Numbered from the whole stretch's first letter, positions 12,577 to 55,213 are shown. The stretch: 59,767 nucleotides of DNA, filler included, from 4 parts of 4 records of this genome joined end to end with filler, not necessarily neighbours in it; one strand, 5' to 3'. The notes: generated by a model from the sequence alone, not told the origin. Made by a program: numbers and translations.

Positions 12577-12676
12577 NNNNNNNNNNNNNNNNNNNNNNNN
12601 NNNNNNNNNNNNNNNNNNNNTTAATTAATTAANNNNNNNNNNNNNNNNNNNNNNNNNNNNNNNNNNNNNNNNNNNN
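12577..12676. other. Artificial contig spacer (44N-TTAATTAATTAA-44N)
   Basis: Six-frame stop linker; GC drops abruptly across it. Confidence 0.99.
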
Positions 12677-37164: not shown

Positions 37165-37264
37165 NNNNNNNNNNNNNNNNNNNNNNNNNNNNNNNNNNNN
37201 NNNNNNNNTTAATTAATTAANNNNNNNNNNNNNNNNNNNNNNNNNNNNNNNNNNNNNNNNNNNN
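37165..37264. other. Artificial contig spacer
   Basis: 44N-TTAATTAATTAA-44N; GC jumps across it. Confidence 0.99.
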
Positions 37265-38251: not shown

Positions 38252-38410
38252 AATTTTTTCAAAGGGTTATGCCATTTCAGGCCGGGCGCTGGCAAAACCC
38301 TGCCCATCCTGATTGCAGATGTTTCAACACGTTACAAAGAGTGAGTTGAGCCATCGAAAGTGAATAAGTAACACCTTTGATAGCGGGGCCACAGCCCCTT
38401 GGGGAATAGT

Positions 38411-39331
38411 TTGCAAAGCACCGTAAAGAATTCGGTCACGTTTATTGGGGTTGGTCTGCATTCCGGCCAACCTGCGCGCATGGTCGTATGCCCTGCAGCG
38501 CCTGACCACGGAATCATATTTCAACGCCTGGATCTGGCCGGTGGCCCGGCGCTGCTGCCGGCGCGCTTTGATGCGGTCACGCAATCGCCGCTATGCACCT
38601 TGTTGCGCAATGGCGATGGCGCCAGCGTTTCCACGATCGAACATATCATGGCCGCGCTTGTGGGGTGCGGCGTGCACAATGCGCTGGTGCAGTTGGATGG
38701 GCCCGAAGTGCCCATCATGGATGGCAGTGCTGTGCAATTCGTGCGCGATATTTTGCAAACGGGCCTGCAAACCCAGCCTGCGGCCCTGCGCGCCATCAAG
38801 GTGCAAAAACGCATCGAGGTGCGCCGCGGCGATGCCTGGGCGCGGCTAGACCCGGCCGATACGCTAGAGATCGATTTCAGCATTGATTTCGACGATGCCG
38901 CCATCGGCGTGCAGCGCAAGGTGTTGAACATGGCCAATGGCTCGTTCGTGCGCGAATTGTGCGACAGCCGCACATTTTGCCGCAAGGCCGATGTGGATAC
39001 GATGCGCGCCAATGGCCTGGCCCTGGGCGGCACGCTGGAAAACGCTGTGGTGGTTGATGGCGACGCGGTGCTAAGCCCCGGTGGCTTGCGCCACGCAGAC
39101 GAGGCCGTGCGCCACAAAATGCTGGATGCCTTGGGCGATCTGGCCCTGGCGGGGGCGCCTTTGCTGGCGCGCTATACCGGCCATCGCGCGGGGCATGCGC
39201 TGACCAATGATCTGCTGCATGCGCTTTTTGACACCCCTGATGCGTGGTGCTTTGTGGGCTGCGATAGTGATATTGCCGGCCGCTTGCCGGGCGCTGGCGT
39301 GCATCTGGGCGAACTGTCGGCGGTGGCCTAA
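38411..39331 (+). CDS. lpxC: UDP-3-O-acyl-GlcNAc deacetylase
   Basis: GVGLHSG, TIEHIMAAL, EVPIMDGS, RHKMLDALGDL, GH; probable TTG start. Confidence 0.96.
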   Translation: MQSTVKNSVTFIGVGLHSGQPARMVVCPAAPDHGIIFQRLDLAGGPALLPARFDAVTQSPLCTLLRNGDGASVSTIEHIMAALVGCGVHNALVQLDGPEVPIMDGSAVQFVRDILQTGLQTQPAALRAIKVQKRIEVRRGDAWARLDPADTLEIDFSIDFDDAAIGVQRKVLNMANGSFVRELCDSRTFCRKADVDTMRANGLALGGTLENAVVVDGDAVLSPGGLRHADEAVRHKMLDALGDLALAGAPLLARYTGHRAGHALTNDLLHALFDTPDAWCFVGCDSDIAGRLPGAGVHLGELSAVA

Positions 39332-39451
39332 AACCGCTTGGTGCCAGATTTTGTGCGTAAGGCGTTTTGCACCGGAATTTTCTGTGCTAGGACCGATGCA
39401 AATTGCAGTGTGATGACTGCTGATTTGAGGCAAAGGAAAGCGAGTTCGGGC

Positions 39452-40300
39452 ATGGCCGTCGGGGGATCACGTGTGAAAAATATCATGCTTGTTCTGGCTG
39501 TTGCGGGGCTATCAGCCTGCAGCACAGCCGAACGCGTGCGCAGTGGCGACATTCCGATTGACACATTTTCGGCCAAGCAAATCTTCGAGCGCGGCGAATT
39601 CGAGTTGCAACGCAACGACGAAAAGCAAGCCAGCTTTTATTTCTCCGAGGTCGAGCGCCTGTATCCCTATTCCGATTGGGCCAAACGCGGGCTGATCATG
39701 CAGGCCTATGCCAATCACAAGGCAAAGAACTATCTGGAAAGCCGCTCGGCGGCCAAGCGTTTCCTTGATTTCTACCCAGCCGATGAAGATGCCGCTTACG
39801 CGCAATATCTGCTGGCGCTTAGCTATTATGACCAGATCGATGATGTGGGGCGCGACCAAAAGCTGACATTTGAGGCCCTGCAAGAGCTGCGCACCGTGAT
39901 CGAGCGCTACCCCGAAAGCGATTATGCGCGTTCGGCGATTTTGAAATTCGATCTGGCCTTCGATCATCTGGCGGCCAAGGAAATGGAAGTGGGCCGCTAT
40001 TATTTGCGCCGCGGCCATTACACTGCGGCGATCAACCGGTTCCGCACCGTGGTGGAAGATTTCCAAACCACCACCCATACCGCCGAGGCGCTGCACCGCT
40101 TGGTCGAGGCCTATCTGTCGCTGGGCCTTGCGGGCGAGGCGCAAACAGCGGGCGCCATTCTGGGCCACAATTTCAGGGCCACCAGCTGGTATGAAGACAG
40201 CTACAAGCTGCTCAATGGGCGCGGGCTGGAACTAGAGGCGGTGGGCGATGGGTGGCTGTCGCAGATCTATCGTCAGACGATCCAGGGCAAGTGGCTATAA
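39452..40300 (+). CDS. bamD: Outer membrane assembly lipoprotein BamD
   Basis: Lipobox LSAC; YPYS, RDQ, LAAKEMEVGRYY, AAINRF. Confidence 0.95.
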   Translation: MAVGGSRVKNIMLVLAVAGLSACSTAERVRSGDIPIDTFSAKQIFERGEFELQRNDEKQASFYFSEVERLYPYSDWAKRGLIMQAYANHKAKNYLESRSAAKRFLDFYPADEDAAYAQYLLALSYYDQIDDVGRDQKLTFEALQELRTVIERYPESDYARSAILKFDLAFDHLAAKEMEVGRYYLRRGHYTAAINRFRTVVEDFQTTTHTAEALHRLVEAYLSLGLAGEAQTAGAILGHNFRATSWYEDSYKLLNGRGLELEAVGDGWLSQIYRQTIQGKWL

Positions 40301-40335
40301 CGGCAGCGTTTGGCCGATAATCTTGCGGGGGCCAG

Positions 40336-41985
40336 ATGCTGCTTGGGTTAGAAATACGTGATATTCTCATCATCGACCGGTTGGAACTGGCGTTTCAACC
40401 GGGCTTGAATGTGCTGACGGGTGAAACCGGGGCGGGAAAATCCATTTTGCTGGATAGTCTGGGCTTTGTGCTGGGCTGGCGCGGGCGGGCTGAATTGGTG
40501 CGCAAAGGGGCAGCCCAGGGCGAGGTGCTGGCCGAATTTGATTTGCCCGCAGATCACCCGGCGCGCGCAGTGTTGCGCGAGGCGGGCTTGCCGGAAGACG
40601 ACAGTTTGTTGCTGCGCCGGGTCAACACTGTGGATGGGCGCAAAACCGCTTGGGTGAACGACCGCCGCTGCTCGGGCGAGGTGCTGCGGCAATTGTCGGA
40701 AACTTTGGTGGAACTGCATGGCCAGCACGACGACCGCGGGCTGCTTGATGCACGCGGGCACCGGCGCCTGCTGGATACGTTTGGCCAGCTTGATCCCCTG
40801 GTTGATGCCACGCGCCACCAGTGGCGGGCGTTGCGGCAGGCGCAAACGGCCCTAGAGGCTGCGCAAACCGCCCTGGCCCAAGTGGCCGCAGAAGAAGAAT
40901 TTTTGCGCCATGCGGTGGCCGAGCTGGATAAGCTGGCCCCGCAACCCGGCGAGGAAGAGGCGCTGGACAGCCGCCGCCGCCTGATGCAATCGGCCGCGCG
41001 TATCCGCGAGGATATCACCCGCGCCCATGCCGCATTGGCCAGCGATGGTGCCGAGGCGGCGATGGGCAATGCGCTGCGCTGGGTCGAAGGTGTGGCCGAG
41101 CGGGCGGGCGATGTGCTAACCCCCCCGATCGATGCGCTGGGCCGCGCTTTGGGCGAGGTGGCGGATGCCATCGCGGGGCTCGAGGCGGCTTTGGACCAGC
41201 TGGCCTTTAATGCGCATGAATTAGAAGAGGTGGAAGAGCGGCTTTTTGCCATTCGTGGGCTGGCGCGCAAGCATCAGATCGCCCCCGAAGACCTGCCCGC
41301 CTTTGCCGAAGATCTGCGCGCCCGGCTGGCCCGGCTTGATGCCGGCGCGGGCGATTTGGCCGCGCTGCGCCAGGCCGCGGCCCAGGCCCAAGCCAGCTAT
41401 GATACAGCTGCGCAGGCACTGAGCGCGGCGCGCGCCGCGGCGGCCTTGCGTTTGGATCAGGCGGTGATGGCCGAATTGGCGCCGCTGCGCATGGAACGGG
41501 CGGTGTTTGAAACCCAAATCACCCCGGCCGATCCCGGCCCCGAGGGGCGCGATATGGTGGCGTTTTCCGTGGCCACAAACCCCGGCGCCCCGGCTGGCGC
41601 CTTGGGCAAGATCGCCTCGGGCGGGGAATTGAGCCGCTTTATGCTGGCGCTTAAGGTCTGTTTGGTGGGCGAGCAATCCAGCGCCACGATGATTTTTGAT
41701 GAAATCGACCGCGGTGTGGGTGGCGCCACCGCCGATGCAGTGGGCCGCCGTTTGGCGGCGCTGGCCGAGGGCGGGCAGGTGCTGGTGGTAACCCATTCAC
41801 CGCAGGTGGCGGCCTTGGGTGCGCATCATTGGCGGGTGGAAAAGCGGGTTGTGGATGATCAAACCCTGTCCACCATAACGCCATTGGCCGATCAGGCGCG
41901 TATCGACGAAATCGCGCGCATGGTGTCAGGCGATACTATCACCAACGAGGCCCGCGCCGCGGCCCGTGCGCTGCTGCAATTTTAG
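40336..41985 (+). CDS. recN: DNA repair protein RecN
   Basis: TGETGAGKS, HGQHD, ASGGELSR, FDEID.GVGG, VTHSPQVAA. Confidence 0.97.
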   Translation: MLLGLEIRDILIIDRLELAFQPGLNVLTGETGAGKSILLDSLGFVLGWRGRAELVRKGAAQGEVLAEFDLPADHPARAVLREAGLPEDDSLLLRRVNTVDGRKTAWVNDRRCSGEVLRQLSETLVELHGQHDDRGLLDARGHRRLLDTFGQLDPLVDATRHQWRALRQAQTALEAAQTALAQVAAEEEFLRHAVAELDKLAPQPGEEEALDSRRRLMQSAARIREDITRAHAALASDGAEAAMGNALRWVEGVAERAGDVLTPPIDALGRALGEVADAIAGLEAALDQLAFNAHELEEVEERLFAIRGLARKHQIAPEDLPAFAEDLRARLARLDAGAGDLAALRQAAAQAQASYDTAAQALSAARAAAALRLDQAVMAELAPLRMERAVFETQITPADPGPEGRDMVAFSVATNPGAPAGALGKIASGGELSRFMLALKVCLVGEQSSATMIFDEIDRGVGGATADAVGRRLAALAEGGQVLVVTHSPQVAALGAHHWRVEKRVVDDQTLSTITPLADQARIDEIARMVSGDTITNEARAAARALLQF

Positions 41986-42024
41986 CCGCATCTGGCCCCT
42001 GTGCCGCTTTTATGGGGCCAGCTG

Positions 42025-42267
42025 TTATGGGGCCAGCGCATCAAAGATGGGCTTGTTCAGGCAAAATTCGGGCACGCTGTGGCTGTCTTGATCGGCCAAT
42101 GCGGTTTCACAGGCGCCCACATTGCGGCAATGGGTGCACAGCATCACCGCCTCGCGCAGCTTGGTGGCGCCCAAGCGCCCATTCAGAATGTTTCGCCCCA
42201 CATCAATGCCGGCTTTGTCGACCATGGCATGGACCAGATCGGCGTGCTTTTCCATTTTTCCAAACAT
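42025..42267 (-). CDS. DUF6455-like small Cys-rich protein
   Basis: C..C....C...L...P.FC.N pattern; AAGGTGA-like RBS. Confidence 0.7.
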   Translation of the reverse strand: MFGKMEKHADLVHAMVDKAGIDVGRNILNGRLGATKLREAVMLCTHCRNVGACETALADQDSHSVPEFCLNKPIFDALAP

Positions 42268-42421
42268 CGCTCTTCACCTTTCCCTTTCGTTTGTCACCGC
42301 TAGTTTGCACCGCAAGCAGCTTTGCGCCTTGACCTTGATCAAGTGCATTGTTGAAACGGGGCTAGACAGTGGGGCCGCAGCGGTTAGTCTTTGGCCCGAA
42401 GCGACGCGAGGGGATAACGCG

Positions 42422-43536
42422 ATGGAAAAGTTTGGCAAAAGTCAGTCTGTAAAGCGGGTCGAGGATATTCGGTTTCTTACCGGACAGGGCCAATATGTAG
42501 ATGATATTGCCCCGGTTGATGCGCTGGTGGGCTATGTTGTCCGCTCGCCCATGGCGCATGGCACGATCAGCATGCTTGATGTCTCCGAGGCACGCCAGGC
42601 ACCCGGTGTGCACTTGGTGCTGACAGCGGATGATCTGCACGCCAATGGCGTGACCGAGGGCATGGTGGCCACGGTGGTGAAAAACACCGATGGCACCGAT
42701 GGTGCCGCCCCCCGCCGCCCGCTGCTGGCCGAGGGGCGCGTGCGCTTTGTGGGCGAACCTGTGGCAATGATTTTCGCCGAAACAGCCGAACAAGCCCGCG
42801 ATGCGGCCGAGCTGGTCGTGCTGGATATCGACGAGCTGCCCGCCAAGCTGGATCTGGCCCCGGGCGGCGCCACCTTGCACGATGAGGCGCCGGAAAACCG
42901 CGCGTTTGATTGGTCGATGGGCGATAAGGCGGTGTGCGATGCGGCCTTTGCGGGGGCCGCCCATGTTGTGCGCCTGCGCGTCGAAGACAACCGCGTGATC
43001 GTAAACGCGATGGAGCCGCGCGGCTGTTTTGCAGAATTTGATGGCACCCGCCTGCATCTGTCGGTGAACGGGCAGGGGGTGTGGGGGCCCAAGGGGCAGC
43101 TTTCGAAAATTCTGGGCCTGGCCGAAGAAAACGTGCGCGTCACCAACCCCGATGTGGGCGGCGGTTTTGGCATGAAGGCCATGACTTATCCGGAATATTT
43201 CCTGTGTGCGCATGCGGCCATGCAGCTGGGGCGCGCGGTGCGCTGGATGTCGGATCGCACCGAAGCCATGCTCAGCGATAACGCCGGCCGCGATTTGTGG
43301 CATGATGTGGCATTGGCCTTTGATGGCAGCAAAAAGATTGTTGGCTACAGCGTGCATACCAAATGCAACCTTGGCGCTTATAACAGCCAATTCGGCCAGC
43401 CCATTCAAACCCAGCTCTTTAGCCGGGTTCTGACCGGTGTCTACGATGTGCAGGCCACCTATTTGCAGGTCGAGGGCTATTACACCAACACAACCCAGGT
43501 TGATGCCTATCGCGGCGCAGGCCGGCCCGAGGCGAT
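42422..43536 (+). CDS. Xanthine dehydrogenase/CoxL-like molybdopterin-binding subunit (3' truncated)
   Basis: RVEDIRFLTG.G.YVDD, RSP.AH, DVGGGFGMK, AYRGAGRPEA. Confidence 0.92.
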
Positions 43537-43636
43537 NNNNNNNNNNNNNNNNNNNNNNNNNNNNNNNNNNNNNNNNNNNNTTAATTAATTAANNNNNNNN
43601 NNNNNNNNNNNNNNNNNNNNNNNNNNNNNNNNNNNN
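43537..43636. other. Artificial contig spacer
   Basis: 44N-TTAATTAATTAA-44N. Confidence 0.99.
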
Positions 43637-43637
43637 C

Positions 43638-43928
43638 GACGCCTTGCGATCCGAGAAAAGAGAGCTGGATCAAACCGTCGCGGATGCGCGCATTGCGGCT
43701 GCCCGAGAGGCAGCACGGGCCGGAACCCTAAGCGGCAGGTCTGATGCGATTGCGGCTGATATCGCGGCGAGCGAGGACAGGCTTGCGCAGCTGAAGCGCG
43801 ATATCGAAGAAACTCAAAAGAAACAGGATCTTGAACGCCAGGAACCTGAGGCCGGAACCGATCTGCCATCGCCGCCCCCTTCTGCGGACGCCGCAATCGA
43901 TCCTGCCGACATTCAGAACCAAGAGTGA
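43638..43928 (+). CDS. C-terminal fragment of a coiled-coil protein (5' truncated)
   Basis: Heptad-like charged helix (ELDQTVADARI...LAQLKRDIEETQKK) and a Pro-rich tail; stops 10 nt before the next ATG. Confidence 0.65.
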   Translation, partial: DALRSEKRELDQTVADARIAAAREAARAGTLSGRSDAIAADIAASEDRLAQLKRDIEETQKKQDLERQEPEAGTDLPSPPPSADAAIDPADIQNQE

Positions 43929-43938
43929 GTGACCATCA

Positions 43939-46191
43939 ATGTTGTCCAATCTGACCGCGATCGTGCTCGTGACGGCCTCTGCACTGGCTTTGCTCTCGAT
44001 CGTCCAATTGCTGCTGGCCGCCCGGAACGATCGCGTTGCGACGGCGGCGGGACCGATTGAGGATCTCGCCGTCTACGAACGGCGATTGCAGGAGAAGAAG
44101 GACGCGGTTGCGGATATCGAGAACGAACTCGAGCTGCGCCGAAAGGCTCTGGGGGACGTCGCCGGTATGCAGGCGGAGGTCGATGCCCTTGTGCGGCAGC
44201 GCGAAACCTTGCTCGCCGAACACGCGACGCTGGAGGAGCGCAAGGCAGAAGTGCTGGCCGTTCGGTCCGATATGGAAGCAGCCCAGATAGAGCGGCAGTC
44301 GCTCGAAGCCGAGTTGATCGAAAAGCGCGAAGAATACCTCGCGGTCAAGGACCGCCTGGAAAAGGCGGAACGGCTCGTGCATCAGATTTCTGCCCTTTCT
44401 GCCGAGAAGGCGGAATTGGATCGCGCCATCGATGACCTGCGCGATGAGGTGCGCCGCCTGCAGGATGCGGAGAAACGCGTGGCGGACCTGTCGCAGCGGG
44501 CGCTCGATCTGGAAGCCGACTTGGCGCGCAAGGCAGGGGCGCTTGCATCACGCGAGAGCGATCTGGCGGAGGTGAGCGAGCGCCTTTCGGCAGAGCGGTC
44601 ACGGATTGCCGAAAGCAGTGCCGCGCTTTCGCAGGTGCAGGCAGAGAAGGCCGCCGAAGATCAATCCCTGGCGCGATTGAAAAGCGAGGCGATCGAGGCG
44701 CAGGAACGCTGTGATGCCCTGCGAGCGGCAGTCGGTGCACGCGAAGCCGATGTTCGTCGCCTGGATACGCAGATTCAGGAGCGGAATGGCAAGGTCACGT
44801 CTCTGGCTGCCGACATCGAGGCCCAGAAAGCGCTCAAGGTCGATCTCGAGGATGAGCTGACATCCTTGCGCATCGAAGTCGCCTCCGCCGAAGAGGCCTT
44901 TGCGGAACGGAACGGCGAACTGGATGCGATGGCAGATCGCCGGGTTCGGATGGAGGCCAAGCTTGCAAACTTGCAAGCGGCCATCGAACAGAGCCAGGGG
45001 GCCGCGGCGGGCGGTGGCACATCGACCGTCGATCCGTTGAAGGAACTGAAGGAGCGCCCGCCGGTCATCGTGCAGTTGGAGAACCTCGACGCACCGGGGC
45101 AGATCTACGAAGGCGAGGCGATCCACAACGTGGAAAAACGCCTGCAAGCCTTCGGACTGGATTACCATCCGCGTGTGATCCGGGCCTTCCATACGGCCAT
45201 GAAGGTCAACGAGAGCACGCAGATGGCGGTGCTCGCCGGGATTTCCGGCACGGGCAAGAGCCAGCTGCCCCGGCAATACGCCAGCGCCATGGGGATCGGG
45301 TTCCTCCAGGTGCCGGTGCAGCCGCGATGGGACAGCCCGCAGGACCTCATGGGCTTCTACAACTACATCGAGGGCAAGTTCCGCCCGACCGACATGGCGC
45401 GTGCTCTCTGGGCGCTGGACGGGCACAACAACGTGGACGCAGTCGAAGACCGGATGATGATGGTGCTGCTCGACGAGATGAACCTCGCGCGGGTCGAATA
45501 CTACTTCTCCGATTTCCTCAGCCGCTTGGAAAGCCGACCGTCGCGGGATCGAACGGACGACAAGGGGCTGCGCAAGGACGCGGAGATCGAGCTCGAAATC
45601 CCGAAGCTTGCGCAGCCGCCGCGCATCTTCCCGGGATACAACCTGCTGTTTGCTGGCACGATGAACGAGGATGAAAGCACGCAATCGCTGTCGGACAAGG
45701 TCGTGGACCGCGCCAACATCCTGCGGTTTGCAGCGCCGAAGAAGATCCAGGCGGGGGCACGGCAAGGCGATGTTCCGGAGGTGCGTGCCCTGTCGCAGGG
45801 CAAATGGCAGTCTTGGGTGAAGCCGGTCTCGTCGGTCGCGGGCAACGAGATGGTGACCGCCAGCGTGGAACGCATGGTGGACTTGATGCGCAGCTTCGGC
45901 AGGCCTTTCGGTCACCGCCTTGGCCGTGCGATCATGGATTACGTCGCGAATTATCCCGAGGCCGACGGTGTGGACCGCATCCGCGCAGGCCTGGCCGATC
46001 AGGTCGAAATGCGCCTTCTGCCCAAGCTGCGCGGGGTCGAGGTCGATGACATGGAGCATGTCTTTGGCGAGTTGACGGCTTTTGTCGAGAATGACCTGGG
46101 TGACGCGGTCCTGGCAGATGCCATTCGGGCGTCGAAGGATGCGGCAGAGGCTTCGACCGGGCAGTTCGTCTGGAACGGGGTGACGCGCTGA
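43939..46191 (+). CDS. Membrane-anchored coiled-coil McrB-like AAA+ GTPase (NxD type)
   Basis: N-terminal hydrophobic helix, about 310 aa coiled coil, Walker A GISGTGKS, VQPRWDSPQDLMGFYN, Walker B LLDEMNLARVEYYFSDFLS, GTMNEDE, LSDKVVDRA. Confidence 0.85.
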   Translation: MLSNLTAIVLVTASALALLSIVQLLLAARNDRVATAAGPIEDLAVYERRLQEKKDAVADIENELELRRKALGDVAGMQAEVDALVRQRETLLAEHATLEERKAEVLAVRSDMEAAQIERQSLEAELIEKREEYLAVKDRLEKAERLVHQISALSAEKAELDRAIDDLRDEVRRLQDAEKRVADLSQRALDLEADLARKAGALASRESDLAEVSERLSAERSRIAESSAALSQVQAEKAAEDQSLARLKSEAIEAQERCDALRAAVGAREADVRRLDTQIQERNGKVTSLAADIEAQKALKVDLEDELTSLRIEVASAEEAFAERNGELDAMADRRVRMEAKLANLQAAIEQSQGAAAGGGTSTVDPLKELKERPPVIVQLENLDAPGQIYEGEAIHNVEKRLQAFGLDYHPRVIRAFHTAMKVNESTQMAVLAGISGTGKSQLPRQYASAMGIGFLQVPVQPRWDSPQDLMGFYNYIEGKFRPTDMARALWALDGHNNVDAVEDRMMMVLLDEMNLARVEYYFSDFLSRLESRPSRDRTDDKGLRKDAEIELEIPKLAQPPRIFPGYNLLFAGTMNEDESTQSLSDKVVDRANILRFAAPKKIQAGARQGDVPEVRALSQGKWQSWVKPVSSVAGNEMVTASVERMVDLMRSFGRPFGHRLGRAIMDYVANYPEADGVDRIRAGLADQVEMRLLPKLRGVEVDDMEHVFGELTAFVENDLGDAVLADAIRASKDAAEASTGQFVWNGVTR

Positions 46192-47702
46192 TGCCGCGAT
46201 TGCCGCGTCCCTGGTCCGGACAGTTCGGGGACGATGCCGCCGCCTTCGGGCCCGGTGACTGCCTCCTGAGCGAGGGAGATCTGCCCGGGCGCGAGGAAAA
46301 GGTCCTGCTCATGCCGGGGGAGGTCCGAGGCGTGAACCGGGCGCTGTGGTTGCACCCCTATCCTCGCAAGGGCGCGGCAGGTTCGCCAGAGCGGTCGGGC
46401 TTTCCGATCCGACCGAAGATCGGGACGGAGCCGCAGAACGGCGAGGATACGCTGCCCTTCGATACCCTGCGCCGGATGAACGAAGTCATGGCGCGTCTAC
46501 AGGAACTCGAAGAGGCGCTGGACGATCCGGCGAATGTCTGGTCGCGCCTGCGCGCGGCATGGAAGCGTGCCGAGAACGAGGAAGACCCGCGCATGGCCGA
46601 AATCGTGCGGCAGGCGCGCGACCTCGGCCCGGTGGCGCGCGATCTGGAAAAGCGGATCAGGCGGGTGCTGCGCAGGCAACGTGAGATGACGCCGTTGGAC
46701 CGTGTTCAAGAGATGGACCGCGCCTCGATGGTTTGGCTGAGCCGCCAGCCGGGACGTGGAATTGCCGAACGCGCGGGTGCAAGTCAGCGCATCCTGGCGA
46801 CGGTGCGGCGAGAGAATTTCGATACGCTGGAAAACCGCGTCCTGCGGGCATGGCTGGGGCTGGCAGAGGCGGTGGCGCGCGAATGGCTGCGCGAGCACGC
46901 GCGGGCGCGAGAAAGCGCTCGGTTCCGATCTGTCGAGGCGCTGCGGAAACTGTGCCGACGGATGAACGACGAACTGGACCAGCTGGGGGTCAATGTCGCA
47001 CAGCCGGGGATCACGCCGAACTACGTCCTTATGCAGGACCGCGGCTATCGGCGCATATACGACGCATGGCAACGCCTGTTGAAGCGCGACCAAGCTCTGG
47101 ATCAACTTTGGGCATGGCAGGCCCAGTCTTGGACGGATTTCGCGGTTCTCGCGATCGTCCTTGCGCTGGACGACTTGCCGGACGTCGAATTGATCGCGCA
47201 ATCGCCGATGCTGTGGAACTCGGAAGCCCGCGCCGGGCGCTGGTTCGACCAGGATCGACCCTTGGCCATCTTCTGGCTAAAACGCATCGGGCGTGTCGTC
47301 GAAGTTATGGCGCGACCGGAACAGCCCGGCACCATGCTGACCCTGGCGCGCGCGCATGTCGCGTTGCGGATATCTGATCCTGCCGGGGTCGAGATGGATC
47401 AGCGAATTCCGGTCTGGACGCCCCATGCGATGCTGCCTTTGGACATGGGGACGATTGCGCGTGACGCGATGGGCTGCCTTGCCCAGTTGCAGATCGCAAA
47501 ACGTCAATTGAGCGCGATGGACACGATTCACAGCGGTTTGGTTCTTGCGCCGACCCATGGCGATTCAGTGGCTGTGCGCAAATCCGATGGCCCGCTGACA
47601 GTCGATGCCATCAGCCTCGGCGCATCGGGCGAGGCGCTGGGGCAGGGCATCGCGTCGCTCAAGGCCTATGCCGAAAGCCAGTTCTCGGAGGTGCACGGAT
47701 GA
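46191..47702 (+). CDS. DUF2357 McrC-like protein, nuclease motif apparently degenerate
   Basis: DTLENRVL and PNYVLMQDRGYRRIY DUF2357 motifs; TGATG overlap with the GTPase; no PD...D/ExK seen. Confidence 0.75.
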   Translation: MPRLPRPWSGQFGDDAAAFGPGDCLLSEGDLPGREEKVLLMPGEVRGVNRALWLHPYPRKGAAGSPERSGFPIRPKIGTEPQNGEDTLPFDTLRRMNEVMARLQELEEALDDPANVWSRLRAAWKRAENEEDPRMAEIVRQARDLGPVARDLEKRIRRVLRRQREMTPLDRVQEMDRASMVWLSRQPGRGIAERAGASQRILATVRRENFDTLENRVLRAWLGLAEAVAREWLREHARARESARFRSVEALRKLCRRMNDELDQLGVNVAQPGITPNYVLMQDRGYRRIYDAWQRLLKRDQALDQLWAWQAQSWTDFAVLAIVLALDDLPDVELIAQSPMLWNSEARAGRWFDQDRPLAIFWLKRIGRVVEVMARPEQPGTMLTLARAHVALRISDPAGVEMDQRIPVWTPHAMLPLDMGTIARDAMGCLAQLQIAKRQLSAMDTIHSGLVLAPTHGDSVAVRKSDGPLTVDAISLGASGEALGQGIASLKAYAESQFSEVHG

Positions 47703-50029
47703 GCTTTACGAAGCTGTGCGGCTACGATGTGAACGGGTACCGCGACCTGGCCGCGCGAAACTGGGAAATCTCCGCCGACGGCGAAGAGCGCCAGAACATC
47801 CAGATCACGCACGGCGGGTTGCTGTCGTCTGTGGTGCGGGCCGGTACAGGGCCCGACATGCGCTGGATCGGCGGTGCGCAGGCAGCGCTTGCTCCGCACG
47901 GGCGCGGCGATGGCTGGGGAGAGATCGGCAAGGCAGGGCGCCGGTCCTTGACCCGCTGCCTGTTGACCGGAAGGAATGACGACGTGGAAGCGCTCGGCGC
48001 TGCCTTTTCCGGCTTGGTCACGGGTGCGCGGTATAACGTGATGGCCGTCGATGACGTCGGACGCGATGTCGAGGCCCAGCAGGAACGGGTCCTGCGTGCA
48101 GCGCAGAAGGCTCACCTGTCCAATCCGCTGCTCGTCTGGCGCAGCGTCCTTGCGGTTCTGTACCACGTTTCCCTTGGAACGCTTGCAGAGGGGCGGCGCG
48201 TGGGCATCATCAGCCATTGCGAAGACGGGCTCGCCGTACAACAGATGCGCATCCTGTCCCGTGACGGCGTGTTGGCGCCAGAGCGAAACCGACCCGCACG
48301 ATTGGTGCCCTCGGCCGCCGGGCTTGGTGAGCTTGTGATGGCGGCGCGCCACGTCATGCTGGGCGGCGAAAGGATATCGCAGGGCAATGCCCATCGTCCC
48401 CAGGCCAGAATGGTCGGGACGCTTGCCTTGGGGGAGCCGGTTTCGGCAGAACTGCTGCGGAACAACCGTGGCCGCTGGGATCTGATCGAGCCTATGACCA
48501 TGACGCTGCCAGTCCGCGATTTCGAGCGCGAAGACTTGGCCAGCCTGAGGGATTGTGACGTCGTGCTCTTCGAAACCGTCGCAACCGGTGTCGTCGCGGA
48601 CACGGTGGCCGGTTGGTGTGCCGCGATGCTGGCTCGTGACGTAGCGCGGTTGCCGCAGGAGGCCGTTGCACGCGGTGCGCTCGAAGCGGCGCGACGCATC
48701 CAGAGGCGCGAACCCGTCTACTTCGACTTCCTGCCGCAGATTTCGACCATCGTTCAGACGGGCAGCAAGGCTGGCAATTACGACTTGATCCGTGCGGGCG
48801 ATACGGTCGAGGCAGGCCGCCTCTATCGCAGTCCGGAACCGGCGCAGATGGCCATCCCGGCGCGGCAGAACGCAATATCGGTCTACCTGCGCAAGGAGAT
48901 GATTGCCCAACCGCGCCGCGCCACGGTCGAGATCGGCGCCCCCTTGCAGGCCGCCGCGCCGGTGGACTTGCTCGTCGAGCAAAAGCCGGTCTCCGGCCGG
49001 GCCCGCATCCTGATGGAAGCGCGGTCCATAGGACGGCAATTTACCGTCGATTGGGACGAGGCCGAAGTCGTCGACACGGATTGGGACACCCTGATCGCGT
49101 CGCTCGAAGCGCCCCGACCTTCGGTCCCCGACAGGCTGGTTCTCGGGGCGGCGCTGGATGCCTGGCAGACCGGGATGACCGAACTTCTGGAGGAGAACGC
49201 GGACCGGAGCGATGTGGACTGGACGGCTCTCGCCCAGAAGATGCGATCGGGGGTCAATCAGAGCTATTGCGTGTCGAGCGATGGCGAACTGCCACCCGGC
49301 CTGTCGCGCCTCGACATCGAACGCCTGGACAGGCTGACGGAGCGTGCCCTCGTAGAGACCGAGGAGCGCGTCGCCGGGCGCAGGCGGGGCGACAACGATG
49401 CGCTGGCGTTTCTGACCTGGCAGTTCCGCCGCTGTCCAAGGCAGTTGCTCCCGATGTTGATGGACTGCCTGACTGGAAACGGGGACCATCCGTTCGTCTG
49501 GAGGCCGATGAACTGGGTCCTGATCTATCAGGGCTTGGCCCGCATCGTTTCCGATCCTGACGACGAGGCGCGTTTGCTCCGTCACATCCTGCAGTCGCCA
49601 ATCGGTGAATCCGAATGGCGTACGAAAACCGCCTGCATCGCCATGGTCCTTTCGCGCTCGGAAACGGCGCCGCATTCATTGGTGCGCGAGGATATCGACG
49701 TGCTGGCGCGTCGTGCGATCTTCGAATTCGGCGAGGTGGTTGGAGATGGATATACCCGTTTCCTCTACGCACGTTTCCTGTTGGGCGGGCTGCTGCGGTG
49801 GAGAGCCGTCGATCCCTATGCCTTGGTTCCGGGCTACGACCCGCTTGGCGAGCGCCTTGTTCACTCGATCGAGGCCATCCTCGCGGACTTCGACCTACGG
49901 GCCAGAAGGCACCGAGAAGTGGCAACTGCAGAACGGCGGCTTCGACCGACCTTCGAGGGCCTCCTGTCGGAACTCAAGGGGGACGGCGGCAGCCCGGATC
50001 TGCTGTTGAACATCTACCAAAGCAGTTGA
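47699..50029 (+). CDS. Divergent Hsp70/actin-fold protein with extra C-terminal helical domain
   Basis: CGYDVNG, RAAQKA..SNPLLVWRSVLAVL, EAVARGALEAA and YFDFLP..STI...LIRAG appear in Hsp70 order; ATGA overlap. Confidence 0.65.
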   Translation: MSFTKLCGYDVNGYRDLAARNWEISADGEERQNIQITHGGLLSSVVRAGTGPDMRWIGGAQAALAPHGRGDGWGEIGKAGRRSLTRCLLTGRNDDVEALGAAFSGLVTGARYNVMAVDDVGRDVEAQQERVLRAAQKAHLSNPLLVWRSVLAVLYHVSLGTLAEGRRVGIISHCEDGLAVQQMRILSRDGVLAPERNRPARLVPSAAGLGELVMAARHVMLGGERISQGNAHRPQARMVGTLALGEPVSAELLRNNRGRWDLIEPMTMTLPVRDFEREDLASLRDCDVVLFETVATGVVADTVAGWCAAMLARDVARLPQEAVARGALEAARRIQRREPVYFDFLPQISTIVQTGSKAGNYDLIRAGDTVEAGRLYRSPEPAQMAIPARQNAISVYLRKEMIAQPRRATVEIGAPLQAAAPVDLLVEQKPVSGRARILMEARSIGRQFTVDWDEAEVVDTDWDTLIASLEAPRPSVPDRLVLGAALDAWQTGMTELLEENADRSDVDWTALAQKMRSGVNQSYCVSSDGELPPGLSRLDIERLDRLTERALVETEERVAGRRRGDNDALAFLTWQFRRCPRQLLPMLMDCLTGNGDHPFVWRPMNWVLIYQGLARIVSDPDDEARLLRHILQSPIGESEWRTKTACIAMVLSRSETAPHSLVREDIDVLARRAIFEFGEVVGDGYTRFLYARFLLGGLLRWRAVDPYALVPGYDPLGERLVHSIEAILADFDLRARRHREVATAERRLRPTFEGLLSELKGDGGSPDLLLNIYQSS

Positions 50030-50489
50030 CGGCAGAACGGGTAGGTCCGCTCCGATACCCAGCATTCGAGAGCCCGAGCCCCTGCATCGTTCGTGAAGCA
50101 GAAATTGGGTTATGGACCTGAAAGAAGCGCGCAGCCATCCGACACTTCTTCCGGGATAGGTGCGCTGTCTCGGGTCGAACTCTGCCCATTGATCGCGCTC
50201 CTCGAGCACGCCGAGGGGATTTTCCTTCTCAGGGCGCCGCGGCCGGGATCGTTGCGAAGCCCGGGCCTTTGTCCCGGCCTCGTCGGCGCCGAATATCCAG
50301 CCTTCGTCGCGGGCGGTCATGGTTTCGGAGCCTGGCGCGGGTGGCATGACGGTCGCGTCGAGCAGGCGGGACCTTCTGCAGTGAGCTGCCCCAGCAGGGA
50401 TTGGAAGATGCGCAGCCTTTCGAGACTGACCTCGGGCGTCTCTTCGCCTGAGCCGTCGATGCCGATCTGGCGGTGGGGGCGTGGCGGGC

Positions 50490-53400
50490 TCATGGGGAGA
50501 TGCCAGCGATGGCGGGCCATTCCGGCAATGCCGCCAGCGCGTTGACGAGGCGCATCTGCTCGACCGTTTCGCAGCGGGTGTCGGGTAGGCGGGGGCTGGA
50601 AAAGACCAGTGCCAAGGCCTTGGCGCGCGACACCGCGACGTTCAGGCGGTTGCGCGACAGGAGGAACTCGAGGCCACGCGGGATATCCTCGGCGCTCGAT
50701 GCGGTCATCGAGACGAGGCAGACCGGGGCCTCCTGGCCCTGGAACTTGTCGACCGTGCCGACACGGACGCTCGCGGGCAGCGCGTCGCGCAGGGCGTTGA
50801 CCTGGGCGTTGTAGGGCGCAACGACGATGATGTCCTGTTCGCGCAGCGGGCGGGCGGGGCCGTCGTGCCATTGCCCTGCAAGCAAGCGCGCGACGGCGGC
50901 GAGTATGGCTTCGGTTTCCTCCGGCGCGGTCTGGGCATTGCCGGTGTGCGGGACTTCGACGCGGAAGGCGCCGGCCACGGGCAGACCGGGCGCGGTGATC
51001 CTGCGGGCGGCGGCGGTGTCATGGGCGGTGAGCTGGCCGTCGTAGAACCGATCCGAGACATAGGCACAGACATCGGGATGCATTCGGCGCGAGACGGGCA
51101 GGAAGATCCCGCGATCCGGTGCGACCGTGATGGCCTCGCCGAGCAGCCATTCGAGGCAGCTGAGGTTCGCCGGGTCGGGATGCGCGCCCTGTATCACCTG
51201 GGGCAGCTGGTTCGGGTCGCCGACGAGCACGATGTTATGGGCACAGCGCGCCATGGCGATGAGGTTGGCGAGACTGACCTGACCGGCCTCGTCCACCACC
51301 AGCGTATCGAACGCGGTTTCGAATTCGGGCCGGGAAAACAGGAACGCCGTTCCGCCGACGATATCGGAGGTAAACAGCTCGTCGTCCTGGTTGGTCTCGG
51401 CCACAGTGACGGGGCAGTCCTCGGGGTAACCGTGGTCGCGCCCGGTCTTGTGCACCATCGTCACCGTGTCGTCGATCTCCAGCGCGGCGACGCAACCCAT
51501 CATCAGGTTGCGCACGGCCTCATGGCTGTTGGAACTGACGGCAACGCGGCGCCCCTGGCGGACAAGGGCGAGGATCGCGCGCGCGGTGACATGCGTCTTG
51601 CCGGTGCCGGGTGGGCCTTGAATGGGCAGCACTGTGGCATCCATGGCAAGCACGGCGTCGCGCACGGCGGTCACAGGATCGTCGCGGGGGATGTCCTGCA
51701 GTGCCGTGCCGGTCAGGCGTGGCGGGGTCCGCGACAGCAGGTCGGTGATAGCGCGGTTGGCCTTTGTGCCGCATTGGTCGGCGATCACGGAGCGCAGGCT
51801 TTCGGCGATGACCGTGGTATTCAGCGGCCAGTCCGGCCCAAGATTCAGCCGGTCCGCCAGAAGGTCCGCCTTGGCCGCGCCGATCTTCAGCGTCAGGCGA
51901 CGGGCTCGGCGGTCCAGCGCGGTCAGGCTTGCCTTGGCGGGCGCGCCGTCCGGATCGGAGATCGTGACTTGGGCGCCTTCGCGGAGCTTCGTCTCTTGCT
52001 GCGGGTAGGTGTAATCGCGTTCGAAGGACCGTTTGACCGGGCGCGACGGGCCAAGCGCCGTCAGAAGGCCAAGCGCGTCAAGGTCGTCGAGCAGGTCCTC
52101 GCCTTCCTTCGCTGCCGTGTCGAAGACGGCCCATTGCGCCGGTTTTTGTTCGCGGGCGTGAAACAGCCCGAGGTCGGTCAGCATCGCGGCATCCGAGTGG
52201 CCCCCGGTCAACGCTTCCAACGCTCGGCGGTTCGGGTCGGGCAGTTCAGGCTCGGGTGCGGGCGTCCGCGGGCCGGTATATGTCCGCGGCGTGATCGTCA
52301 TCAACCAGTCGCGCAGCTCCTGTGTCGAGATGCAGTCGATGCGGTTGTACTCCTCGATCTCGTCCAGGATGGCTTGCTCGCCGCTTTCCAGCCAGCGTTC
52401 ATAGGCGACGATGGAGCCGCCCGCCGTCGTCACCTCGCCGTCGCGGGTGCGACCGTAGAAGGCCTCCATCGACTTGATGGAATAGTTCGGTTCCGACGCG
52501 ATCAACCCGCCGCGCACCACGGCATAGAGGTCGACGAAGCGCCCTTCGCGCAGGCAGAGATCGATGAATTCCTCTCCCACGCCGTATTTCGTGGTCAGCC
52601 GTTTCAGGGCGGTGATCTCGTAGGGCGCGTAGTGGTAGATATGCGCCATGGGACGCGCGTCGCGCGCTGCGCGGAAGCTATCCAGAAGGCGTTCCAGCGC
52701 GCGTTTCTCGGCGGCGTGGTCATGCGCCCAGAGAGCGGTGAAACCATCGGCGGACCACAGCCCGTGCAGATATTCGAGGCCGCCGGGCACATGCGGATCG
52801 CCCTCGATGTCGTAGAAGATGTCGCCCGGGTCCGGCTCCGGCAAGAGGTCGAAGCCACGCCCGGGTTCGGGGTCGCGCAACTCAAAGGACGGCATGCCGG
52901 TCCGTCGTGCAGTCTGCAGGCGAGCCTGTGTCGTCAGCCGGGCCAGCGTCGGCGCGGCGATGCGACGGACCGCTGCGGTGTTCGTCGCCAGTGCCGCCAT
53001 GGTGGTGATGCCCTGCGCCTCCAGCTTGGCCACCTGGCCCCGGGTGATGCCCGCGACGCGGTAGAGACTGTCCTCGGCCGCCCACTGGCGCTGGCAGTGA
53101 TCCGACCAACGGCAAAGCGAACAATCGGCGCAGGGCGCCGGGCGGGTCTGTTCCGGGGCGTCGAGGAAGGATTCCAGTCGCTTGCGGGCGCGCCGGGCAT
53201 AGGCGGTGTAATCGGCAAGGCGCAGGGAGGCACGCTCTCCGCTGCCGAGTTCGACATGGGCGCGTTCGGGCGGGGCGCCCTGCACGTCGGCCAACAGGTC
53301 CGAGTAGAGCACCAGTTGTAGCACGTGCTTCGGCGAGACGCGGCGCTTCAGCTTCGTGTCCGTGACCTCATAGCTGAAGGGGCCGAGGTTCGACGGCGTC

Positions 53401-53750
53401 TCGACCCGTTCGAGGAAATCCGACCAACCGCCCCAACGCCCCTGCGCCAGCGCGCCTTGGAAGACGACGGCGGGACCTTTCGCAAGGACAGAGCGCGTGT
53501 CCTGCGCGTTTTCCCAAAGGTCGCCGCGCTCGATCTCGACTACGTCGCCCGTGGCCTTCAACTCGGCGAGGTGAGCCGCCTCATGGGCATCGCCCTGTTT
53601 CTGCAACAGGGCGGTGTCGTCAGAGGCGGCATTCGGCACCAGGTTTGCACCGTTCAGGTAATCGAGGTCCAGCCGCGTGGCATGGGCGCAGCCCATGAAA
53701 CGCATGAGGTCGGTCGCGGACAAGAGTAGCGTGTCACCGTGGCGCTTCAT
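50490..53750 (-). CDS. TM0106-family RecB/Cas4-like nuclease + RNase H-like domain + SF1 (DNA2/UPF1-like) helicase fusion
   Basis: SDFL...DTKL, Q...Y, C..C..C.W...C, FYDIEG, QGPPGTGKT, VDEAGQ, GDPNQL, TVDKFQGQE, RLNVAVSRA. Confidence 0.9.
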   Translation of the reverse strand: MKRHGDTLLLSATDLMRFMGCAHATRLDLDYLNGANLVPNAASDDTALLQKQGDAHEAAHLAELKATGDVVEIERGDLWENAQDTRSVLAKGPAVVFQGALAQGRWGGWSDFLERVETPSNLGPFSYEVTDTKLKRRVSPKHVLQLVLYSDLLADVQGAPPERAHVELGSGERASLRLADYTAYARRARKRLESFLDAPEQTRPAPCADCSLCRWSDHCQRQWAAEDSLYRVAGITRGQVAKLEAQGITTMAALATNTAAVRRIAAPTLARLTTQARLQTARRTGMPSFELRDPEPGRGFDLLPEPDPGDIFYDIEGDPHVPGGLEYLHGLWSADGFTALWAHDHAAEKRALERLLDSFRAARDARPMAHIYHYAPYEITALKRLTTKYGVGEEFIDLCLREGRFVDLYAVVRGGLIASEPNYSIKSMEAFYGRTRDGEVTTAGGSIVAYERWLESGEQAILDEIEEYNRIDCISTQELRDWLMTITPRTYTGPRTPAPEPELPDPNRRALEALTGGHSDAAMLTDLGLFHAREQKPAQWAVFDTAAKEGEDLLDDLDALGLLTALGPSRPVKRSFERDYTYPQQETKLREGAQVTISDPDGAPAKASLTALDRRARRLTLKIGAAKADLLADRLNLGPDWPLNTTVIAESLRSVIADQCGTKANRAITDLLSRTPPRLTGTALQDIPRDDPVTAVRDAVLAMDATVLPIQGPPGTGKTHVTARAILALVRQGRRVAVSSNSHEAVRNLMMGCVAALEIDDTVTMVHKTGRDHGYPEDCPVTVAETNQDDELFTSDIVGGTAFLFSRPEFETAFDTLVVDEAGQVSLANLIAMARCAHNIVLVGDPNQLPQVIQGAHPDPANLSCLEWLLGEAITVAPDRGIFLPVSRRMHPDVCAYVSDRFYDGQLTAHDTAAARRITAPGLPVAGAFRVEVPHTGNAQTAPEETEAILAAVARLLAGQWHDGPARPLREQDIIVVAPYNAQVNALRDALPASVRVGTVDKFQGQEAPVCLVSMTASSAEDIPRGLEFLLSRNRLNVAVSRAKALALVFSSPRLPDTRCETVEQMRLVNALAALPEWPAIAGISP

Positions 53751-53764
53751 GGGGGCCTTTTGGG

Positions 53765-54148
53765 TCAGGCGGCGTCGAGCGCGTCGAGGATCTTGTCCAA
53801 TTGCGCGAGGGACGCGAGATTGATGCAGACAAGGTCACCCTGGGCAAGCTGCAGCATTGGCTTCATGGCGGAATGGCGTCCGAACTTGGCTGCAGGGTCG
53901 CGATTTGCGGCGGACCGCTTGTAATCGAAGTCCTGCGACAAAAGGCCGGCGACCCGCTCCTCCAACAACCAGAGGTTCGGCGGGCTCAGATCATCCTTCT
54001 GGAACATGATCTCGGTCGTCTTTCCCGAGGCGCCCTTGAAGACATAGCGGCAGGCCTTCGATCCCTGGTGCCGCGCGGGATGTTCCTGGCAAACGGCATT
54101 CAAACGTTGGATGATGGCGGATTTCAGCTCGGCGCGGGGCGTGGGCAT
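53765..54148 (-). CDS. Hypothetical protein (127 aa), first gene of the TM0106 operon
   Basis: ATG 54148 after the purine-rich AGAAAGAA; ends 14 nt upstream of the TM0106 start; GRHSAMK motif. Confidence 0.65.
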   Translation of the reverse strand: MPTPRAELKSAIIQRLNAVCQEHPARHQGSKACRYVFKGASGKTTEIMFQKDDLSPPNLWLLEERVAGLLSQDFDYKRSAANRDPAAKFGRHSAMKPMLQLAQGDLVCINLASLAQLDKILDALDAA

Positions 54149-54201
54149 CTGGTTCTTTCTTTGTGACGGGCACCGACTCGCGTGTCGGCCTCTCGATTGA
54201 T

Positions 54202-54232
54202 TAACTACGTTGCAACCAGGACAAAAGCTGTC
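54202..54232 (-). promoter_or_regulatory. Candidate WYL-regulator site and promoter (copy 1)
   Basis: Minus strand GACAGCTTTTGTC-CTGG-TTGC-AACG-TAGTTA. Confidence 0.55.
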
Positions 54233-54244
54233 ATGCATGTCGCC

Positions 54245-55213
54245 ATGTCCTACGATAAAGCCGCTGAATTGCTGAGACTCGCCCGCCTGTGCGCCGCATC
54301 GCGGCAGGGGATCACCTTTGCGCAGGTGGCCGAGGAGTTCGGCATGAGCCAGCGCAATGCAAAACGCATGGTGGATCGGCTGTGCGACCTGTTCGAGGTC
54401 GAGCGGCTGGAGGATGCAGAGCGGCGCGCGCGGTTTCGCATCCGCGAGGCACGCGAGATGGCGCTTCCCGAGAAGCCTGACATCACACTCGAGGCACTGA
54501 AACTGGCGCTCCGCGGATTGGAGGAGGGCTCGGCCCATGCGGTGGCGCTTGCGGACCTGCGCAACGCGGTGCTGGCACGGTTGGAACCCAACCGTGCGCG
54601 CAAGGCGGAATTGGATGCCGAAACGGTGTTGCAGGCATACGGCCACGTCGCCAGCCCCGGGCCACGCGTGCGCATTGCGCCAGACGTGATCGAGAGCATC
54701 GGCGAGGCTTTGCGCGGACCGTTCCAGTTGCGGATCGCCTACGGGGACAAACCGCCGCGCGTGGTGGAACCCTACGGCATCCTGCGCGGCGTGCGCGGCT
54801 ACCTGGTGGCGAAACAGCGCGAGAAGGGGGAGTTGCCGATCAAGTTCCGGCTGGACCTGATCCGCGAGGCGGAGGTCCTGAACGAGAGCTTCCTGCTCGA
54901 CGAGGGTTTCGACATTGCGGATTTCGCGGCCGAGGGTTTTGGCGTCTGGCACGATCCGAAGGAATCGAAGGAGGTCGTCTGGCGGTTTGTTCCCGAGGTC
55001 GCGGAGCGCGCGGCGGAGTTCGTCTTTCATCCCGGCCAGAGCACGGAGAAGCTGGAGGATGGCAGTTTGCTGGTGCGTTTCACCGCCTCGGGTTGGACCG
55101 AGATGACATGGTATCTGTACAAGTGGGGCGACAAGGTCGAAGTGCTGGAGCCGCCGGAATTGCGCGCGAAGGTCGCAGGTTACCAACGCTCCGACTTCGA
55201 AGCGCTGCCCTGA
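54245..55213 (+). CDS. WYL-domain transcriptional regulator (HTH-WYL-WCX)
   Basis: N-terminal HTH (VAEEFGMSQRNAKR), R.VEPYGI..YLVA, FRLDLI, WCX FHPGQ...WGDKVEVLEPPELR. Confidence 0.9.
   Translation: MSYDKAAELLRLARLCAASRQGITFAQVAEEFGMSQRNAKRMVDRLCDLFEVERLEDAERRARFRIREAREMALPEKPDITLEALKLALRGLEEGSAHAVALADLRNAVLARLEPNRARKAELDAETVLQAYGHVASPGPRVRIAPDVIESIGEALRGPFQLRIAYGDKPPRVVEPYGILRGVRGYLVAKQREKGELPIKFRLDLIREAEVLNESFLLDEGFDIADFAAEGFGVWHDPKESKEVVWRFVPEVAERAAEFVFHPGQSTEKLEDGSLLVRFTASGWTEMTWYLYKWGDKVEVLEPPELRAKVAGYQRSDFEALP

Follow-up and report, generated by a model that had tools for sequence, protein, structure and literature searches.

The window analysed here is a stretch of DNA of 59,767 nucleotides (nt), and the locus under study occupies its positions 43,638 to 50,029, where closely coupled genes code for the end of a coiled-coil protein, a membrane-anchored McrB-like GTPase, a DUF2357 protein and an Hsp70-like protein. 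With a probability of roughly 0.87, we identify this locus as a Type III-B CoCoNuT cassette, cnuH-cnuA-cnuB-cnuC-cnuD, of which the 3' four-fifths are present and which is truncated inside cnuA by the end of a contig. The subtype is already known, and the locus is an incomplete copy of it. CoCoNuTs, catalogued by Bell et al. (eLife 2024, PMC11090510), form the NxD-type branch of Type IV restriction systems and derive from McrBC. According to the main text of that paper, Type III-B comprises CnuH, in which a helicase is joined directly to a Vsr-like nuclease; CnuA, encoded separately and consisting of coiled coil only; CnuB, a coiled coil with an NxD McrB-like GTPase; CnuC, whose DUF2357 is accompanied by an inactivated PD-(D/E)xK domain; and CnuD, a separately encoded Hsp70-like protein with nucleotide-binding and substrate-binding domains (NBD/SBD) and HEAT-like repeats. 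The same text places Type III-B mainly in Alphaproteobacteria and never together with TerY-P. In the literature searched, a relevant use of the Cnu gene names was found only in Bell et al. and its preprint, and no experimental test of any Type III-B CoCoNuT member was found.

The locus and its complete relatives

A first-pass annotation of this DNA had described four open reading frames (ORFs) on the + strand, and all four were confirmed: a first one at 43644-43928, followed by genes of 750, 503 and 776 amino acids (aa) (Table 1). The couplings between them were likewise as described, with a 10-nt gap before the 750-aa gene, then a one-base overlap (TGATG) and finally a four-base overlap (ATGA). 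The ORFs are real genes and not chance ORFs, since 64 loci of other species carry counterparts with 35-64% identity. These related loci, each with a CnuB relative, were obtained by scanning one genome per species (185,579 species) with six peptide patterns, so that 64 is a lower bound. They stem mostly from Rhodobacterales/Paracoccaceae, Rhizobiaceae and Hoeflea; a few are metagenome-assembled genomes labelled Gammaproteobacteria, Lamprobacter or Thermoanaerobaculia.

The gene order around cnuB is highly constant in these relatives. In the downstream direction, cnuC follows directly in all 64 loci and cnuD comes next in 61, the three misses (L002, L003 and L015) running out at a contig edge inside or just past cnuC. 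In the upstream direction, a cnuH homologue was detected in 58 of the 64 loci. In the six others, no more than 1,344 nt are available 5' of cnuB, hence cnuH is present in 58 of the 58 loci with enough DNA. In two complete cassettes, L001 and L011 (the latter from Rhodobacter capsulatus), CnuH has 1,054-1,057 aa and combines AAA_11/AAA_12 (a superfamily 1 (SF1), UPF1/DNA2-like helicase) with a C-terminal MTES_1575/DUF559 match (Vsr-like nuclease fold), whereas CnuA, encoded between cnuH and cnuB, has 554-657 aa and gave coiled-coil family matches only.

Altogether, the complete relatives have a gene set and order identical to those given for Type III-B in the main text of Bell et al., including the SF1 helicase-nuclease CnuH and the coiled-coil-only CnuA upstream, of which a fragment is left in the window and full versions are seen in L001 and L011. 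Their mostly alphaproteobacterial origin is a further likeness to that description. The idea of an undescribed system, put forward in the first-pass annotation, therefore does not hold, because the complete cassette of the relatives corresponds gene for gene to the published subtype; a match of this kind had been named beforehand as a finding against that idea.

The incomplete state of the copy in the window is explained by the way in which the sequence was put together. An artificial linker, N44-TTAATTAATTAA-N44, is present three times, at 12577-12676, 37165-37264 and 43537-43636, and its 12-mer TTAATTAATTAA thus has 3 occurrences in the window against 0.01 expected by chance. These three identical linkers join four contigs into the window, and gene neighbourhoods across them are meaningless. 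The contig with the cassette starts one base past the last linker, and the cnuA frame is open from its first base, 43638. The upstream truncation of the operon is an assembly edge and not biology. An operon cut off upstream had indeed been proposed beforehand: the cut-off exists, but its cause is the contig end and no biological truncation is involved. The accompanying warning that upstream components may be missing was well placed, as the relatives carry cnuH and a full cnuA at this position.

The remaining cnuA fragment sits directly 5' of cnuB, like cnuA in the related loci, and the related CnuA proteins likewise end in a tail rich in P, E, D and T.

Features of CnuB, CnuC and CnuD

Each of the three intact proteins shows the feature that the main text of Bell et al. 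gives for its Type III-B counterpart. In CnuB, a long coiled coil at the N-terminus precedes an NxD GTPase. At E ≤0.001, 8,169 representative relatives of the GTPase domain were found, and 41 of 46 sampled members of the CnuB family match AAA_5, the family in which Pfam places McrB-type GTPases. Names given by NCBI to CnuB homologues include 'McrB family protein'. The G, S, G, T, G and K of Walker A are at least 90% conserved in the CnuB family alignment (A3, 46 sequences), and the N and D of the NxD motif are invariant in the 46 aligned sequences; more widely, GTMN[E/D/Q]D was found in 142 of 149 cluster representatives. An hhalign comparison of CnuB with the canonical McrB encoded elsewhere in the window paired LLDEMN with VIDEIN and MNED with MNTAD, albeit in a weak alignment (probability 12%, E 0.0024). 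As MNED aligns to MNTAD in this weak alignment, the one-residue deletion leading from NxxD to NxD is directly visible.

The stalk of CnuB, of about 320 residues, matched only Rod_CreS (crescentin), ATG16, SMC and Rad50, these matches covering residues 45-356. It is made up to 76% of E, K, R, D, Q, A and L, and contains a single proline. CnuB proteins fall into two length classes of about 660-675 aa and 743-750 aa, and the copy in the window belongs to the long class. For the PADLOC candidate PDC-M26, to which the PADLOC match of CnuB belongs, no literature was found.

In the case of CnuC, a DUF2357 match was obtained above the Pfam cut-off (E 7.7e-9). An AlphaFold2 model built from 54 sequences (pLDDT 88) has its best PDB fold matches in McrC chains, namely 6hz4_M, 6ut7_G and 6ut6_G (E 5.8e-7 to 7.2e-5). 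In the model, residues 1-85 form a small beta-strand domain, and no long coiled coil is seen. The C-terminal domain retains its acidic residues (D/E355 in 52 of 54 sequences, E371 in 54 of 54), whereas at position 373, where the catalytic lysine would be, all 54 have Q, M, H, L or R and never K. The first-pass annotation had listed a DUF2357 protein and no intact nuclease; for this protein, the loss of the lysine in 54 of 54 sequences bears this out. The predicted loss of nuclease activity also agrees with the inactivated state published for this subunit.

CnuD gave no match in Pfam, NCBIfam or PADLOC. Its model (pLDDT 91) nevertheless matches full-length DnaK (4b9q_A, E 7.4e-15, probability 1.0) as well as BiP and Hsp110 chains, and is followed by a C-terminal domain of about 290 residues that is all helical in the model. 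Thus, the separately encoded Hsp70-like NBD/SBD with helical repeats of Type III-B is found here as well. Approximately 170 nt past the cnuD stop, at 50198-50218, lies a terminator-like hairpin with a T-run; this is a weak signal, with 1 found against 0.4 expected in shuffled sequences.

Taken together, the GTMNED motif, the DUF2357 partner and the Hsp70 fold substantiate the membership in the NxD/CoCoNuT branch that had been proposed for this locus.

Comparison with canonical McrBC brings out likenesses and differences. Both have an AAA_5-type GTPase and a partner with the fold of solved McrC, and the Walker B/DExN and MNxD regions align. In contrast, CnuB has NxD in place of NxxD, and a membrane anchor with a coiled coil in place of the N-terminal DNA-reader domain; CnuC lacks the catalytic lysine of McrC; and the cassette contains additional Hsp70-like, helicase-nuclease and coiled-coil subunits.

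Points against the assignment and alternative explanations

Several observations weigh against the identification as Type III-B CoCoNuT or make it less direct. The clade was equated with Type III-B by gene content and taxonomy, as these are given in the main text of Bell et al., and not by shared accession numbers. That main text mentions no membrane anchors for Type III-B. BLASTP gave no match between CnuB and the canonical McrB of the window. Solved McrB structures were not reached from CnuB by phmmer or hmmsearch of the PDB sequences: the single sequence retrieved P-loop kinases only (phmmer), the results of the full-length profile were dominated by coiled coils of myosin and SMC, and a domain-only profile of 6 sequences yielded shikimate kinase and Lon only, at E 0.026 or weaker. 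As the similarity of the cnuA fragment to the CnuA of L001 is not significant (BLASTP, E 0.028), the fragment was assigned by position and composition. When the CnuH and CnuA proteins of L001 and L011 were searched against the window by tblastn, neither cnuH nor CnuA was found, and the sole CnuH match was a different SF1 helicase (50523-51647, 26-33% identical). A true loss of cnuH in this strain is therefore possible. Finally, the defence activity and all mechanistic steps described below are what we infer by analogy.

Such a true loss would turn the locus into a nuclease-less, membrane-tethered variant consisting of CnuA, CnuB, CnuC and CnuD only, which might act as a sensor or remodelling machine. 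This matches the content of 43638-50029, in which no nuclease with an intact motif is encoded, and cnuH was not found elsewhere in the window. However, the apparent 5' end is an assembly linker and not a gene boundary, and the 58 relatives with enough upstream DNA all have the helicase-nuclease directly 5' of cnuA. Because of these 58 relatives, the missing cnuH is an artefact of the contig end, and with it falls the earlier claim that the system has no nuclease. We consider a nuclease-less variant very improbable; cnuH and most of cnuA simply lie outside the assembled sequence, and the missing nuclease is in the unassembled cnuH. In summary, the earlier interpretation is partly supported: it was right about the branch and the anchor and wrong in calling the system undescribed and nuclease-less.

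An altogether different explanation is that the cassette is a housekeeping membrane machine of Rhodobacterales and Rhizobiales, e.g. for chromosome or envelope maintenance, and not part of immunity. The GTPase domain is 70-75% identical over many genera, and some sources name homologues 'chromosome segregation ATPase-like protein', both of which count in its favour. On the other hand, the flanks of the cassette vary between loci, and any one flank family recurs in 7 of 65 loci at most. The ten families met with most often are DUF4041/T5orf172, IS66 and another DDE transposase, HsdR, HsdM, HsdS, a WYL regulator, HNH, an integrase and one family with no Pfam match. This variation of the flanks between genomes, and their wealth of restriction-modification, transposase and integrase genes, argue against housekeeping, as do the 64 species loci (the lower bound given by the six patterns) found in 185,579 species and the presence of an McrC homologue and a Vsr-like nuclease in the cassette. 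A housekeeping role is thus hardly credible, and the same flanks supply the defence-island setting of homologues that had been asked for in the first-pass annotation. TerY-like genes did not appear among these ten families, although no search aimed at TerY-P was made. Some of the related cassettes give the impression of damage (L038 has only a partial CnuC/CnuD match, cnuA is interrupted in L019 and L036, and the CnuB match of L062 is shortened), which fits the turnover expected of defence genes.

The other NxD clade, CoCoPALM, is named but not analysed in the main text of PMC11090510, where it is characterised by a GTPase to which a transmembrane and coiled-coil domain resembling FtsB is fused, by associated pilus assembly factors resembling signal peptidases and by a coiled coil fused to the McrC homologue. 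The likeness lies in CnuB, an NxD GTPase whose N-terminal transmembrane helix is followed by a coiled coil; yet the conserved neighbours are CnuH, CnuA, CnuC and CnuD instead of peptidase-like genes, none of the ten most frequent flank families is a signal peptidase, a long coiled coil is missing from the CnuC model and Pfam gave no FtsB/DivIC-type domain in CnuB, so that a CoCoPALM system can practically be dismissed.

Membrane anchors and their predicted topology

Against the Type III-B description stand, apart from the absence of cnuH and most of cnuA, which is due only to the contig end, the conserved single N-terminal helices of CnuB and CnuA, on which the main text of Bell et al. is silent. 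In the case of CnuB, 116 of 121 close homologues possess a hydrophobic helix at the N-terminus, the five exceptions being short sequences of 420-510 aa, and so do 128 of 133 cluster representatives of full length, whose identity goes down to about 45%. In the case of CnuA, the helix was detected in 54 of the 64 related loci. Six of the ten misses are cut by the contig start (L003, L008, L017, L052, L055 and L061), and four look mis-parsed or disrupted (L019, L036, L058 and L063). As predicted from these sequences, the anchors of CnuB and CnuA are real and clade-wide; the membrane-anchored GTPase of the first-pass annotation is thereby upheld, with an anchor that is kept across the clade. The main text of PMC11090510 uses the word 'transmembrane' six times, never about Type III-B, and the figure-legend abbreviations consulted contain no entry for a transmembrane segment in this subtype. 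The anchor is thus under-described in that main text; it may be covered in the supplements.

To describe the orientation of the two helices, lysine and arginine residues (K+R) were counted within 15 residues on each side, and topology was predicted from the positive-inside rule only. In CnuB, the mean K+R rises from 0.04 before the helix to 1.95 after it, and the C side is higher in 92 of 93 distinct sequences. As these residues are almost confined to the C side, CnuB is predicted to be N-out/C-in, as a cytoplasmic GTPase requires. In CnuA, the N side has a mean of 3.24 and the C side one of 2.20, and there is a conserved R/K-rich N-tail and an acidic C-flank; among 50 sequences, the N side is higher in 37, the C side in 4, and both are equal in 9. 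Since K and R are mostly more numerous on the N side, CnuA is predicted to be N-in/C-out.

Combining both predictions, Type III-B CoCoNuT could span the envelope by means of two single-pass subunits of opposite orientation, and the coiled coil of CnuA, of 400-600 residues, and its acidic, proline-rich tail would be periplasmic. We put this forward as a tentative idea that is rather unlikely to be correct as it stands. If true, CnuA could sense phage-induced envelope damage or the injection of DNA, and the signal could be relayed via the paired membrane helices to the complex of CnuB, CnuC and CnuD and to CnuH, which would amount to a Zorya-like logic on an McrBC chassis. In Zorya type I, as presented by Hu et al. 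(Nature 2024, PMC11946911), an inner-membrane complex passes the signal of invasion to nuclease effectors through a coiled coil about 70 nm long, and Zorya is thus a precedent for envelope-proximal sensing relayed in this way. The likeness is a functional analogy only: a membrane complex, a very long cytoplasmic coiled-coil tail, and effectors that bind nucleic acid or are nucleases. There is no homology, ZorAB being a 5:2 ion-driven motor with a peptidoglycan-binding domain, whereas here an McrB-type GTPase is the motor and single helices are the anchors.

As a test of side-by-side pairing, the lengths of CnuA and CnuB were compared and showed no co-variation (Spearman -0.11, p 0.46, 48 loci, with a few rows distorted by frameshifted copies), a result that neither supports nor excludes the opposite topologies. 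Past its helix, CnuA measures 392-650 aa and is far more variable in length than CnuB.

Features and surroundings of the locus in the window

The coordinates of the cassette and its neighbours are collected in Table 1. The minus-strand genes at 50490-58916, which include a canonical McrC and McrB, converge on the CoCoNuT cassette, and homologues of this canonical pair flank the cassette in 2 other loci. The cassette is in a defence-island setting.

Table 1. Features of the CoCoNuT locus and of the genes next to it, in positions of the window.
Feature	Positions	Strand	Description and basis
Artificial contig linker	43537..43636	.	44 N, TTAATTAATTAA, 44 N; separates the previous contig from the cassette contig
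cnuA, 3' end	43638..43928	+	Last 96 codons of coiled-coil protein with acidic, proline-rich tail; 5' end lost at contig end; position, composition
cnuB	43939..46191	+	Membrane-anchored coiled-coil McrB-like GTPase, 750 aa, intact; PADLOC PDC-M26A, E 4e-39; homologues, AAA_5, profile alignment
CnuB N-terminal transmembrane helix (predicted)	43954..44022	+	Residues 6-28; 23 residues; Kyte-Doolittle 19-residue maximum 2.52
CnuB coiled-coil stalk	44053..45006	+	Residues ~39-356; coiled-coil family matches only
CnuB Walker A	45238..45261	+	GISGTGKS, residues 434-441; motif
CnuB Walker B / McrB signature	45466..45483	+	LLDEMN, residues 510-515; motif, alignment
CnuB NxD variant of McrB NxxD	45655..45672	+	GTMNED, residues 573-578; motif, alignment
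cnuC	46191..47702	+	N-terminal beta domain, DUF2357 helical bundle, C-terminal PD-(D/E)xK-like fold without lysine; 503 aa, intact; Pfam, model
cnuD	47699..50029	+	Hsp70-like NBD/SBD (~1-470) and all-helical C-terminal repeat domain (~486-775); 776 aa, intact; model fold match
RNase_H_2 and SF1 helicase protein	50490-53750	-	1,086 aa; PADLOC MkoA-like helicase region
Protein of unassigned family	53765-55186	-	473 aa; ORF
Canonical McrC	55180-56454	-	PF10117, E 4e-64
Canonical McrB	56451-58916	-	AAA_5

The contig before that of the cassette is unrelated to it: at 38399-43536 it carries lpxC, bamD (YfiO), a RecN-like SMC_N ATPase and a molybdopterin oxidoreductase gene, within which the contig stops. 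The contig at 12677-37164 has a GC content of about 30-35%, compared to 58-67% in the other three, and codes for chromosomal housekeeping functions (DnaJ, an ABC-2 transporter, a sigma-54 response regulator, a LysA-type decarboxylase, SucC and UvrB). Its GC content and its housekeeping genes identify it as a piece of the chromosome of a different, low-GC organism. The record is thus a mix of at least two genomes, which is to be heeded for neighbouring findings.

Possible mechanism and implications

A possible mechanism can be outlined by analogy with the biology of McrBC and with the main text of Bell et al. (PMC11090510). CnuB would form an AAA+ ring driven by guanosine triphosphate (GTP) and tethered to the inner membrane through its N-terminal helix and its stalk of about 320 residues. 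CnuC would plug into this ring via its DUF2357 domain and stimulate GTP hydrolysis, with no cutting of its own. CnuD, as a degenerate Hsp70 with helical repeats, could be the binder of the target or signal; the main text of Bell et al. proposes that it binds RNA. CnuH, with its SF1 helicase and Vsr-like endonuclease, would unwind and cut as the effector, and CnuA may serve as a second membrane-anchored coiled-coil scaffold. As a whole, the system would restrict invading phage or plasmid nucleic acid near the membrane.

Those features of the locus that look unusual, namely the lack of a nuclease and the truncated first gene, stem from the assembly. The only leads to carry forward are the membrane anchors and the opposite topologies predicted for CnuA and CnuB. 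The conserved anchors on both coiled-coil subunits add a spatial dimension to the RNA-targeting model published in the main text of Bell et al., and the complete cassettes of the relatives, which include some from hosts that are non-pathogenic and can be cultivated, such as Rhodobacter capsulatus (L011), are good material for the first experimental work on Type III-B CoCoNuT.

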